Shown here one piece after another: positions 31,548-35,353 of a stretch of DNA of 64,000 nt. A program made the translations under genes and the position numbers. Positions within the stretch are counted from its first letter, which is position 1. Every line of letters begins with the position of its first letter. This stretch comes from Ostreococcus lucimarinus (Eukaryota). The notes beneath the pieces are model-generated. The model was given only the letters and a program-made list of their open reading frames with translations. It had not been told where the DNA came from and ran no database searches. The stretch lies in assembly GCA_000092065.1 (NCBI GenBank), contig CP000587.1; one strand, written 5' to 3'.

Positions 31548-31943
31548 TCACGTCAGCGCTCGCACCGCGTCGTCCGCGTCGCACGCCTCGCACGCCAACC
31601 GCGCCGCGTCCTCGAACGCCGCCTTCGCCTCGCGAACCGCCCGCCCTCGCGGCGCGCGATTCGACGCCGCCGCCGTCGCCGTCGCGCGTCGTCCCTCCAA
31701 AGCTTCGATCACGCGCGTTCGCGCGCGCCGCGCGTCCACCGCGACGCACGCGCGTCCGTCGTCGCGTCGCGCGCGCGCGAGCGCCAGGAATCCTCGTCGC
31801 AGCGCGCGCTCGAGCTCGAGTTTCGTCGCCATCGCGCGCGCGCACGCGTCGAGCGCCGCGCGCAGCTCGTCGTCGGGTCGCGTCGACGCGCCTGGGCGCG
31901 CGCGACGCGCCGCGCGCGACGACGACGACGCGCACGCGCCCAT
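31548..31943 (-). CDS. Small hypothetical protein beginning MGACASS (predicted N-myristoylation/palmitoylation motif)
   Basis: 131 aa from an ATG lying inside the 18-nt inverted repeat it shares with the divergent neighbour. Downstream frame is open. No homology. Confidence 0.4.
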   Translation of the reverse strand: MGACASSSSRAARRARPGASTRPDDELRAALDACARAMATKLELERALRRGFLALARARRDDGRACVAVDARRARTRVIEALEGRRATATAAASNRAPRGRAVREAKAAFEDAARLACEACDADDAVRALT

Positions 31944-32039
31944 CGGCGACGAGTGCGGCCGCGGCACATCGCGAAGACGACGCGACGCGAAGCGAACGCG
32001 TCGCAAAGCGCGAGGGCGAGCCCGAGGCGCGCGCGCGAC

Positions 32040-32864
32040 ATGGGCGCGTGCGCGTCGCGCGCGCCCGCGTCGTCGCGCGAGACGACGGACGGCGTCGAAT
32101 CGCGCGACTCGAGCGCGACGACGACGACGACGACGACGACGGCGGTGGACGGCGGCGACGGGAAGGCGCGCGAGCGAAGCGACGGCGTGCCGACGCCGCG
32201 ACACTGGGACGAGGGCGACGGCGCGGCGCGCGCGAGCGACGCGGACGGGTTGCCGCGACGCGTGCGGGCGCTGGAGGCGGATTGGGAGGCGACGGCGAGA
32301 CGATCGGCGACGGAACGGCGAGCGCACGCGGTGATGCTCGCGGAGGAGCGCGCGGTGCGGAAAAGATTGATGGAGGGGATGTCGGACGAGCGAAGGATGC
32401 GAGGACTGGGCGCGGGAGGGCGGGACGACGCGACGCTGCGGGAGATTCGAGAACGCGGGGCGACGCACACGACGTTCGGCGCGGTGTTGGATCGGCGGTA
32501 CGTCACGGGATTGGTGGACAGCACGAGCGATGCGATCGAGTTGAAAGGCGTGCGGAGGGCGAATTCGGTGTCGCCGCCGCTGTGCGATGCGAACGATTCG
32601 GTGGACGCGATGAGTCGAGCGTCGTTCGGGTCGGCGTTCGCGGCGAGCGCGACGGCGATGTCGGTGTCGACGAGCGTGTCGGAGAGGCTGAGGGACGAGG
32701 ACGGCGGCGCGGGGGACACGACACCGCGCTCTCCGCGGGTGACGAATGACTTCCCCGAAGACGCCGAGGTTCCCACGCGCACGACGCCGTTTAGCGATCG
32801 AGTCGAGCGACAACTGCAGGCTTCGGCGCTCAAGGGAAAACGTCCCGAAGAGGCGACGCCGTGA
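32040..32864 (+). CDS. Hypothetical protein beginning MGACASR (predicted N-myristoylation/palmitoylation motif); Thr- and Asp-rich
   Basis: 275 aa from ATG 32040. Gly2/Cys3/Ser6 fit the MGxxxS consensus. It is divergent from the small MGACAS gene. Confidence 0.45.
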   Translation: MGACASRAPASSRETTDGVESRDSSATTTTTTTTAVDGGDGKARERSDGVPTPRHWDEGDGAARASDADGLPRRVRALEADWEATARRSATERRAHAVMLAEERAVRKRLMEGMSDERRMRGLGAGGRDDATLREIRERGATHTTFGAVLDRRYVTGLVDSTSDAIELKGVRRANSVSPPLCDANDSVDAMSRASFGSAFAASATAMSVSTSVSERLRDEDGGAGDTTPRSPRVTNDFPEDAEVPTRTTPFSDRVERQLQASALKGKRPEEATP

Positions 32865-34333: not shown

Positions 34334-35353
34334 TTAGAAGACGCCGAGAGTGATCGCCTTGTCGATCGGGAGGCAGGCACCGATGCCCATCCAAATCGCG
34401 TAGAAGGTACCGACCAAGAAAACCGTCATCGCCAACGGTCGGCGGAACGGGTTTTGGAACTTGTTGATCGACTCGAGGAACGGCACGGTGATCAAACCAA
34501 CCGGCACGGCAGCCATGGAGAGGACACCGAGGAGCTTGTTCGGGATCACGCGAAGCGCGTTGAAAGTCGGGAAGAAGTACCACTCCGGCAAAATTTCGAG
34601 CGGCGTGGCGAACGGATCCGCCGGCTCGCCGAGCTGGGTCGGTTCCATCACCGCGAGGCCGATGCACAACGCGATGGTACCGAGGATAACGACCGGGAAA
34701 ATGTAGAGTAAATCGTTCGGCCACGCCGGTTCGCCGTAGTAGTTGTGACCCATGCCCTTGGCGAGCTTGGCGCGGAGCACCGGGTCGGACAAGTCGGGCT
34801 TCTTCGTCACCGACGCGACGACTTGGAAGTTACCGCGAGCCTTCGGGGAGACACTGCGATCGCGCGCGAATCGTCGCTTCGTCAGTCTTCATTCATTCGC
34901 CCTCGCGCGCGCGTCCACGCCGCCGTCACCGCCGCGCCGATCCTCATCCGTCGTCTCGCGCGTCCGCGCGCGCGCGTCCGTCGTCCCGCGCCAAACCCTA
35001 TCTTATCATGGGGGGATCGCGATCCCGTCGCGCTTCGTCGCCCGCCCGCGCGTCGCGCGCCGCGCCGACCCCCGATACCCGCCCGCTCCACCGACGCATC
35101 CCTCGCCATTCGCATCGCATCGCGCGTCCCGCGCGTCCCGCGCATCGTTTCGCGCGTCGCCTCGCGCGTCGTCATCCGCCCTCGATCGCGTCCCGTTCGC
35201 GTCGCGCGTCGCCCATTCATCCCCCACGCACCGCAACGGATCGAACCCCCTCACGGCGCCGAACTGCGCGCGCGCCGCGGTGGATTTTTGCGTCGCGCGC
35301 GCGCGCGCGACGACGCGCGGTCGCGCGACGTTGGAGAGCGTTTGCGCGATCAT
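34334..35353 (-). CDS. petD: Cytochrome b6-f complex subunit IV (petD), nuclear copy. Proposed exons 35255..35353 (transit peptide) and 34334..34877; intron ~34878..35254
   Basis: Exon 2 encodes '[44 protein letters not shown]...PEWYFFP...PFRRP...LTLGVF', near-identical to plastid petD. Codon usage is GC3-rich. The track ORF begins with GTG and there is no in-frame ATG. A stop lies 10 codons upstream, so an upstream exon is required. The candidate exon 1 '[33 protein letters not shown]' ends at a GTGAGG donor. An AAG acceptor would restore the frame (...[21 protein letters not shown]|SVTKKPDL). Confidence 0.65.

Follow-up and report, generated by a model that had tools for sequence, protein, structure and literature searches.

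Why should two neighbouring, divergently transcribed genes encoding unrelated proteins open with the same eighteen nucleotides? The question is raised by a gene pair in a 64,000-nucleotide stretch of contig CP000587.1 of Ostreococcus lucimarinus (assembly GCA_000092065.1), the whole of which is referred to here as the window. One gene of the pair encodes a 131 aa protein on the minus strand (31548..31943) and the other a 274 aa protein on the plus strand (32040..32864). The 274-aa gene takes its start codon and codons 2-6 (MGACAS) from the right arm of an inverted repeat, ATGGGCGCGTGCGCGTCG, at 32040..32057 (plus strand), while the left arm at 31926..31943, CGACGCGCACGCGCCCAT, is the exact reverse complement of that sequence and supplies the same six codons, on the minus strand, to the 131-aa gene; the two proteins begin with MGACASRAP and MGACASSSS, respectively. 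The explanation that we favour, with about even confidence, is that one lipid-anchor signal is used twice, in modal codons, by divergent genes, and that this arrangement arose by ordinary substitution under selection. The repeat itself is best seen as a by-product and not as a DNA element in its own right; on this explanation it is perfect because both MGACAS copies use the codons that are most frequent in the genome.

Two conserved genes with identical starts

As read from the sequence and found by repeat search, the arms face outward, pair at 18 of 18 positions, and are separated by a spacer of 96 nt (about 90 bp in the original prediction, which had correctly described the repeat as perfect). 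Both arms are in frame with the first ATG of their open reading frames (ORFs; 31548-31943, minus strand, and 32040-32864, plus strand), and their predicted register, an ATG followed by codons 2-6 of separate ORFs, was confirmed. The repeat ends at exactly 18 nt, with mismatches of the neighbouring bases on either side. When the 72 nt that follow the two ATGs downstream, and likewise the 48 nt upstream of them, were aligned locally, the scores did not exceed those of controls (p = 0.16-0.25), so the similarity is confined to the 18 nt and the flanks are at control level. No further copy of the 18-mer with up to two mismatches occurs elsewhere within the window. A dispersed repeat or a mobile element was rejected as the source of the arms, since they form a single pair in the window and their similarity has no extension.

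A bare inverted repeat of 18 nt is not rare in this DNA (GC content ~63%), because two favoured codons, GCG and CGC, are each other's reverse complement. Exact inverted repeats of at least 18 nt with a spacer of up to 300 nt were obtained in 0 of 100 dinucleotide-preserving shuffles of the whole window and in 0.6% of 1000 such local shuffles; the actual window contains seven, of 18-24 nt, approximately one per 9 kb and mostly (CG)n-like (e.g., 23562-23583/23639-23660, 43771-43789/43806-43824, 54635-54658/54881-54904, and 54875-54896/54963-54984). The preference for GCG and CGC codons is the probable cause of this CG-rich palindromy. As regards the suspicion, voiced together with the original prediction, that the repeat might belong to a generic CG-rich tract, CG-rich repeats are common in the window, but the register of both arms with start codons is exceptional. 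Among the 666 pairs that can be formed from 37 putative starts of coding sequences (CDSs) in the window, the common prefix is at most 9 nt in every pair but this one, and the 274-aa and 131-aa genes are the sole CDSs of the 37 to start with Met-Gly. Both arms are undamaged in every contig of the window clade (clade A) examined, i.e., in L002, L003, L010-L012, L134, and L140-L153.

Both genes are real and conserved. The local order of genes, which comprises a BCS1-type AAA ATPase, TerC, the 131-aa gene (minus strand), the 274-aa gene (plus strand), Exo_endo_phos (minus strand), and a PetD-like gene (minus strand), is repeated on chromosome 7 of O. tauri (L001) and on metagenomic contigs of at least five more lineages (L002; L004/L138/L139; L006; L007; L009). 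It is this synteny with O. tauri chromosome 7 that identifies the window as nuclear DNA of an Ostreococcus-like picoalga of Mamiellales. In TerC and Exo_endo_phos, the window and L002 are 95-96% identical, as close sisters, and the identity to the remaining lineages is ~58-76%, at roughly equal distances that make the tree star-like. The predicted divergent pair of unrelated proteins was thereby corroborated, with syntenic homologues found for both ORFs and not for one alone. The pair resembles head-to-head gene pairs of compact eukaryotic genomes in its divergent orientation, in the ~50-100 nt between the ATGs, and in its conservation, the divergent genes and the short intergenic region between them being present in at least seven lineages. 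It differs from them in that both genes open with identical codons, to our knowledge not a feature of head-to-head pairs, and in that we infer their co-expression.

The 274-aa protein is specific to Mamiellales. It has 21 homologues in a collection of 5.8 billion proteins; a profile search of 1.84 billion proteins returned only 10 representatives, all Mamiellales-looking, and searches of Pfam and of PDB profiles gave no match. Its AlphaFold2 (AF2) model shows disorder over most of the protein and a single long helix, predicted with confidence, at approximately residues 61-124. A (GAC/ACG)n tract at 32112-32140 (plus strand), which encodes a poly-Thr run in this protein, is polymorphic both in the population (TTTTTTTT vs. 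TTTTATTT) and among lineages. The conserved motifs of the family are TERRAHAVMLAEER, ATHTxxGAVLDRRY, and the C-terminal PTRTTPFSDRVExQLQASAxKGxRPEDATP. All homologues start at the same conserved ATG, which in the window follows a stop codon with no other in-frame ATG in between. Five lineages have MGACAS as the N-terminus, L009 has MGVCAS, and the L007 lineage has MGCAQS. Gly2, Ser6, and a Cys (position 3 or 4) are thus retained in every lineage, as would be expected of a functional signal for myristoylation plus palmitoylation. Since the N-terminus is kept while the overall identity of the protein between lineages is only 40-48%, the motif is ancestral in this family and under selection.

A single-sequence search with the 131-aa protein retrieved close relatives only. 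The syntenic divergent ORF of every other lineage is nevertheless homologous to it, as evidenced by the shared ERALRRGF(L/M)ALARAR and REAxxAFE(E/D)A; the conserved core motifs are ERALRRGFLALARAR and REAxxAFEEA. The possibility of a spurious ORF was rejected on the basis of synteny, these core motifs, and the in-frame character of indels. The AF2 model comprises disordered residues 1-18, a helix (residues 21-61), a beta-hairpin (residues 76-89), and a second helix (residues 98-130). Searches of Pfam, of PDB profiles, and of folds revealed no significant match, and the folds found are generic helical hairpins. The V-ATPase assembly factor Vma22/CCDC115, which is also a small helix/beta-hairpin/helix protein and whose LRQAQASF resembles the C-terminal xREAxxAF of the 131-aa protein, was considered for the 131-aa protein, but this resemblance was not supported: there was no Pfam match at E <= 10, the PDB profile search was empty, and the hhalign probability was 1.7%. 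In a Foldseek search with the model, yeast Vma22 (8eas_A) ranked third (probability 0.85, E = 0.64).

The start codon of the 131-aa gene is secure, because helix 1 begins before the internal Met38, which lies inside this conserved helix, and the ATG of the left arm is the only in-frame ATG upstream of it. Another ATG, read at 31967..31969 on the minus strand, 26 nt 5' of the start, does not share the frame of the gene in the window or in L134; its presence would imply that the 131-aa gene has either a very short 5' untranslated region (UTR) or an upstream ORF. The motif around this ATG, CGCGATGTGCCGC, is conserved within the window clade.

MGACAS as a candidate lipid-anchor signal

The PROSITE pattern of N-myristoylation sites (PS00008) is G-{EDRKHPFYW}-x(2)-[STAGCN]-{P} at the protein N-terminus. 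The sequence with which both proteins begin, M-G-A-C-A-S-(R/S), fits this consensus of N-myristoylation, having Gly2, a small uncharged residue at position 3, Ser6, and a residue other than Pro at position 7. Dual acylation calls in addition for a Cys within a few residues of Gly2, and Cys4 is present in both proteins. The motif stands at the true translation start of both genes, with the caveat of the upstream ATGs of the 131-aa gene, and it is conserved in all lineages of the 274-aa family and, in the 131-aa family, in the window lineage and its sister only. As a reading of the motif, the earlier interpretation of MGACAS as an N-myristoylation plus palmitoylation signal is supported by the match to the consensus and by conservation. 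We regard it as reasonable, with good support in the 274-aa family and fairly good support in the case of the 131-aa gene.

Dual signals of the SH4 type, in which N-myristoyl-Gly2 is accompanied by S-palmitoyl-Cys, are known from the Src-family kinases Lck and Fyn, from G-alpha i/o, and from plant CBL1 and calcium-dependent protein kinases (CPKs). The starts described here share with these signals the N-terminal Met-Gly, a Cys within residues 3-6, Ser6, the lack of Pro7, and a variable downstream linker. They differ from them in the position of Cys (MGxCxS, with Cys4, vs. the classic MGC), in being carried by uncharacterised proteins found only in Mamiellales, in the identity of the hexapeptide in two adjacent genes, and in that lipidation is here predicted. 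Literature searches on MGACAS and on the Ostreococcus myristoylome yielded nothing directly relevant.

If the signal works as its sequence suggests, the initiator Met would be removed from both proteins, Gly2 would be acylated by N-myristoyltransferase (NMT), with Ser6 favouring this reaction, and Cys4 would then be acylated by a DHHC palmitoyltransferase, leaving both products held on a membrane. A shared bidirectional promoter would co-express both genes. The products, one of them largely disordered but for a single long helix and the other a small helical hairpin, may share a membrane as their site of action. On this reading, the two uncharacterised, Mamiellales-restricted proteins are probably lipid-anchored to membranes and expressed from a single bidirectional promoter of very short length, which offers a testable handle on their function.

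The history of the motif in the 131-aa family can be followed from the N-termini of orthologues. MGACAS is found in the window, L002, L134, and all close haplotypes, and the left arm is confined to the lineage of the window and the sister lineage (L002, L134, L010-L012, L140-L153), being missing from all outgroups. The protein of L138 starts with MRACCGRR, and those of L004 and L139 contain the same sequence behind a non-conserved upstream extension, MGRASTEM or MARASTEM; the starts in O. tauri and L006 are MSFSCCRR and MRCCRS, respectively. These outgroup starts show that a Cys-rich N-terminus preceded MGACAS, which in this family is derived, having taken the place of the older start along the branch of the window clade. 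The palmitoylated N-terminus of GAP-43, MLCCMRR, is a di-cysteine start that the earlier start of the 131-aa protein looks like. The likeness, noted by motif inspection, lies in two adjacent Cys residues followed by basic ones at the extreme N-terminus of outgroup orthologues; the window lineage has MGACAS in place of that start. Inside one orthologous family, the lipid anchor has thus probably turned over, with a Gly2/Cys4 start taking the place of a Cys-Cys start.

Residues 1-6/8 of the 131-aa protein are invariant between the window and L002, among ~17 informative haplotype contigs, and among 14 cluster variants, while residues 9-26 are polymorphic, with in-frame indels, in the window clade. 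This invariance of the motif next to variable residues points to purifying selection on it. The two genes as such are fast-evolving relative to their neighbours, with changes gathered in disordered linkers. Between the window and L002, the 131-aa gene has 24% of amino acid differences vs. 13.5% of change at 4-fold sites, and the 274-aa gene 13% vs. 5.9%; the amino acid difference of TerC is 4%.

These data bear also on a different possibility, namely that the 274-aa protein is acylated and that MGACAS of the 131-aa protein is a coincidence, produced by neutral drift of a CG-rich, low-complexity, and possibly dispensable N-terminus. Consistent with such drift, the N-terminal linker of the 131-aa protein is fast-evolving, of low complexity, and composed mostly of A, S, and R, GCG alone makes up ~9% of codons, CG-rich inverted repeats of at least 18 nt are frequent in the window, and there exist both an allele with a frameshift (in L141) and 131-aa orthologues without an acylation-type start. 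We nevertheless consider a coincidence improbable: residues 1-6/8 are invariant in all haplotypes of the window clade and in L002 while the following ones vary, three outgroup clades retain a Cys-Cys plus basic N-terminus, which indicates that a lipid anchor has been maintained, and an exact match of the hexapeptide to that of the adjacent gene is improbable by chance.

The explanation by a selected lipid-anchor signal of independent origin in the two genes has to be weighed against several observations. The orthologues of L009 (MASRDARAR) and P0029 (MRGVRALS) have neither Cys nor Gly2 at their called N-termini, and the anchor is therefore not universal in the 131-aa family. In L141 (3960-4060), a metagenomic scaffold that belongs to the same population as the window, a 19-nt deletion between short direct repeats, GCGCGCGACG, puts the ATG of MGACAS out of frame with the body of the protein; this is one of the ~17 informative haplotype contigs, and the deletion represents a natural null allele or else a fault of the assembly. 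In L002, there is an in-frame ATG 27 nt 5' of MGACAS. To judge from its divergence, much of the 131-aa protein is weakly constrained. Recognition by NMT and DHHC enzymes is predicted here from general consensus rules, residues 3 and 5 are not fixed by the consensus, and the 274-aa family tolerates Val3. Finally, even with a shared peptide, the probability that identical codons are used independently is only ~6%, and the full 18-nt identity by independent evolution has, as a rough estimate, a probability of ~10^-3 to 5x10^-2, a value that varies with the ancestor assumed.

Origin of the shared start

In the original prediction, the identical starts were attributed to duplication of a promoter-proximal 5' exon module. 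This idea fails because there is no shared flank, no intron, and the recipient gene pre-existed. Exactly 18 nt are shared, and both the flanks and the next codons are dissimilar. Each of the two genes consists of one uninterrupted ORF that is colinear with its homologues, and no exon is therefore involved. In outgroup lineages, the 131-aa gene was already present with a Cys-Cys start, and approximately six of its codons were replaced in one lineage, none being added. Moreover, the 18-mer, all codons of which are modal, also heads unrelated genes that have no neighbouring copy.

The codon usage table was compiled from 25 CDSs of the window (11,533 codons). All five sense codons of the arm are modal in it (GGC 0.38, GCG 0.72, TGC 0.72, GCG 0.72, and TCG 0.43), and GCG accounts for the ~9% of all codons mentioned above. 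The probability of this 18-mer given MGACAS is ~0.06, and that of two independent copies being identical is ~0.015. In the 274-aa family, the DNA of the right arm differs where the peptide differs (ATGGGATGCGCGCAAAGC in L007 and ATGGGCGTCTGC in L009), and the synonymous codons of the arm are no more conserved across lineages than those of the ATHT..GAVLDRRY block of the same gene; codon bias is therefore sufficient to account for them. Nucleotide-level constraint on the right arm was rejected on the grounds of this match in synonymous conservation with an internal block. That the arms are the same in the window and in L002 was discarded as evidence of constraint, being uninformative because the 4-fold divergence of the two is only 6-19%.

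Metagenomes were scanned for the 18-mer followed by a purine, a design that leaves out both genes of the pair. The results were dominated by bacterial NuoB, and the number of other MGACAS-starting algal genes is thus a lower bound. Among the matches listed, the same 18-mer heads a gene with a Pkinase domain in two Ostreococcus-like lineages (L026 and L104) and a 378-aa gene located beside that of lipoyl synthase in Bathycoccus-like contigs (L099, L110, and others), in both cases with no partner arm nearby. MGACAS in these codons is thus an N-terminal tag that recurs in these algae. In dozens of GC-rich contigs from soil and other metagenomes (among L017-L136), the 18-mer encodes the internal MGACASxGG of NuoB (subunit B of NADH-quinone oxidoreductase), as assigned by sequence pattern; this motif is itself an illustration of codon-level convergence in GC-rich DNA. 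A scan of viral contigs for a 17-mer returned only four unrelated GC-rich phage contigs. More generally, identical short peptides in a CG-rich genome with extreme codon bias yield identical DNA, and GCG/CGC-rich coding sequence yields many perfect inverted repeats, both of which call for caution in the interpretation of such repeats.

The origin that we favour for the motif of the 131-aa gene proceeds from the di-cysteine start (M-x-x-C-C-x-R-R), which MGACAS replaced on the branch from which the window lineage and its sister descend. The older start, ATGCGCGCGTGC, already matched the start of the neighbour at 11 of 12 nt, and the rest of the changes are ascribed to ordinary substitution, selection for the acylation signal, and strong codon bias. 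Such a route would be favoured by the fast-evolving A/S/R-rich linker, by the preference of NMT for Ser6, and by the very common GCG and TCG codons; as a rough estimate, it would arrive at the exact sequence with a probability of a few percent.

Alternatively, MGACAS of the 131-aa gene may have been copied from the start of its neighbour, by template switching (homogenisation of a quasi-palindrome) or by very short gene conversion, with selection then keeping the myristoylation site. An imperfect inverted repeat would have been lengthened to a perfect one of 18 nt; the function of the products would be the same as in the favoured explanation, and only the origin would differ. This alternative, the main rival of the favoured explanation, is in our judgement somewhat less likely than not. 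In the outgroup L138/L139/L004, ATG CGC GCG TGC TGT GGA faces ATG GGC GCG TGC GCG TCC as a quasi-palindrome that matches at 11 of 12 positions across a spacer of 51-61 nt and then diverges; in the window clade the match is 18 of 18. The way from the outgroup to the window clade takes seven nucleotide changes in codons 2, 5, and 6, every one of them toward the partner arm. One of these changes (Arg2Gly) creates the myristoylation site, and the six others fall in codons 5-6. Copying is further favoured by the identity of all five synonymous positions, a ~6% event if they are independent, and by the lack of any other common start longer than 9 nt among the 666 pairs of window CDSs.

Template switching is not without precedent. 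In coding DNA of yeast, it has been described to produce perfect arms as long as 16 bp and as many as five amino acid changes in one event (Abraham and Hazkani-Covo 2021, PMC8604942), and it is stimulated by transcription (PMC3820800). The pair studied here resembles the quasi-palindrome events of the former study in that a perfect repeat in the derived lineage (18/18) corresponds to an imperfect one in the outgroup (11/12) and in that neighbouring codons moved toward the partner. It differs from them in that the arms lie in the start codons of two genes, in its spacer (96 nt vs. the <=70 nt surveyed in yeast; PMC8604942), and in that the branch is too long for the changes to be recognised as one multinucleotide event. 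TerC is only ~72-76% identical to that of the nearest outgroups and the tree is star-like; on such a branch, a cluster of changes looks the same as many independent ones. More than one ancestral nucleotide state is conceivable for the window clade, as O. tauri and L006 have different starts, and searches for homologues of the 131-aa protein found no lineages intermediate between MRACC-type and MGACAS starts. Furthermore, the identity spans exactly from ATG to Ser6, which selection on the peptide predicts and copying does not require, and the 18-mer also arose at genes without a nearby template. Because of these last two features, the bounds of the identity and the occurrence of the 18-mer elsewhere without a template, convergence has in our view a slight edge over copying.

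In its most specific form, copying would mean that the quasi-palindrome of ATGCGCGCGTGC facing ATGGGCGCGTGC was homogenised by one template switch, which turned a di-cysteine, palmitoyl-only start into the myristoyl plus palmitoyl signal of the neighbour. We consider such a single event rather unlikely. If it did take place, it would represent a new route of protein innovation, in which short motifs are copied between adjacent divergent genes, and it would have given two co-regulated products the same lipid 'address'. Template switching of any kind at this locus would mean that a functional targeting signal can be carried between neighbouring genes.

A further alternative treats the inverted repeat as a DNA or RNA element, such as a symmetric transcription factor site, a cruciform or hairpin on a bidirectional promoter, or a region of antisense pairing between 5' ends, with the identity of the peptides being secondary. 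The arms are indeed symmetric around the presumed promoter, and the 152 nt of 31916-32067, folded as single-stranded DNA, have the arms paired with z = -3.7 relative to shuffles; this z-score, however, results from the 18-bp stem itself, and a loop of 96 nt makes the extrusion of a cruciform unfavourable. No outgroup has the left arm, even though the gene pair and its spacing are conserved, and the DNA of the right arm varies along with the peptide (L007 and L009). Each of the divergent transcripts would contain one arm only, and Rfam has no family matching the region. An element of this kind is, in consequence of all these features, highly improbable, and the lipid-anchor signal used twice in modal codons is preferred to it.

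The intergenic spacer and the neighbouring petD

The 96-nt spacer between the two start codons (31944..32039) is presumed to contain the shared bidirectional promoter and both 5' UTRs. In other lineages, the distance between the ATGs is 51-102 nt when the conserved starts are taken. A CCAAT-like motif, GGATTGATTG or ATCCAATCC, is recurrent in the short promoters of outgroup Ostreococcus-like lineages (L004:4961-5000; L138:1450-1500; and, in L026 and L104, 5' of the ATG of the kinase gene) and is missing from the spacer of the window.

While petD is normally plastid-encoded in green algae, the PetD-like gene at the end of the conserved gene order is a complete ORF for cytochrome b6f subunit IV (Pfam Cytochrom_B_C; window 34334-34810, minus strand) with GC3-rich codon usage of the nuclear type. 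Literature searches on nuclear petD returned nothing directly relevant. The ORF is syntenic on O. tauri chromosome 7 and in other lineages (L001:7123-7542; L002:7286-7825; L004:7159-7677; L007:7322-7897). It opens with GTG and has no in-frame ATG upstream, which suggests that it is preceded by a transit-peptide exon and an intron.

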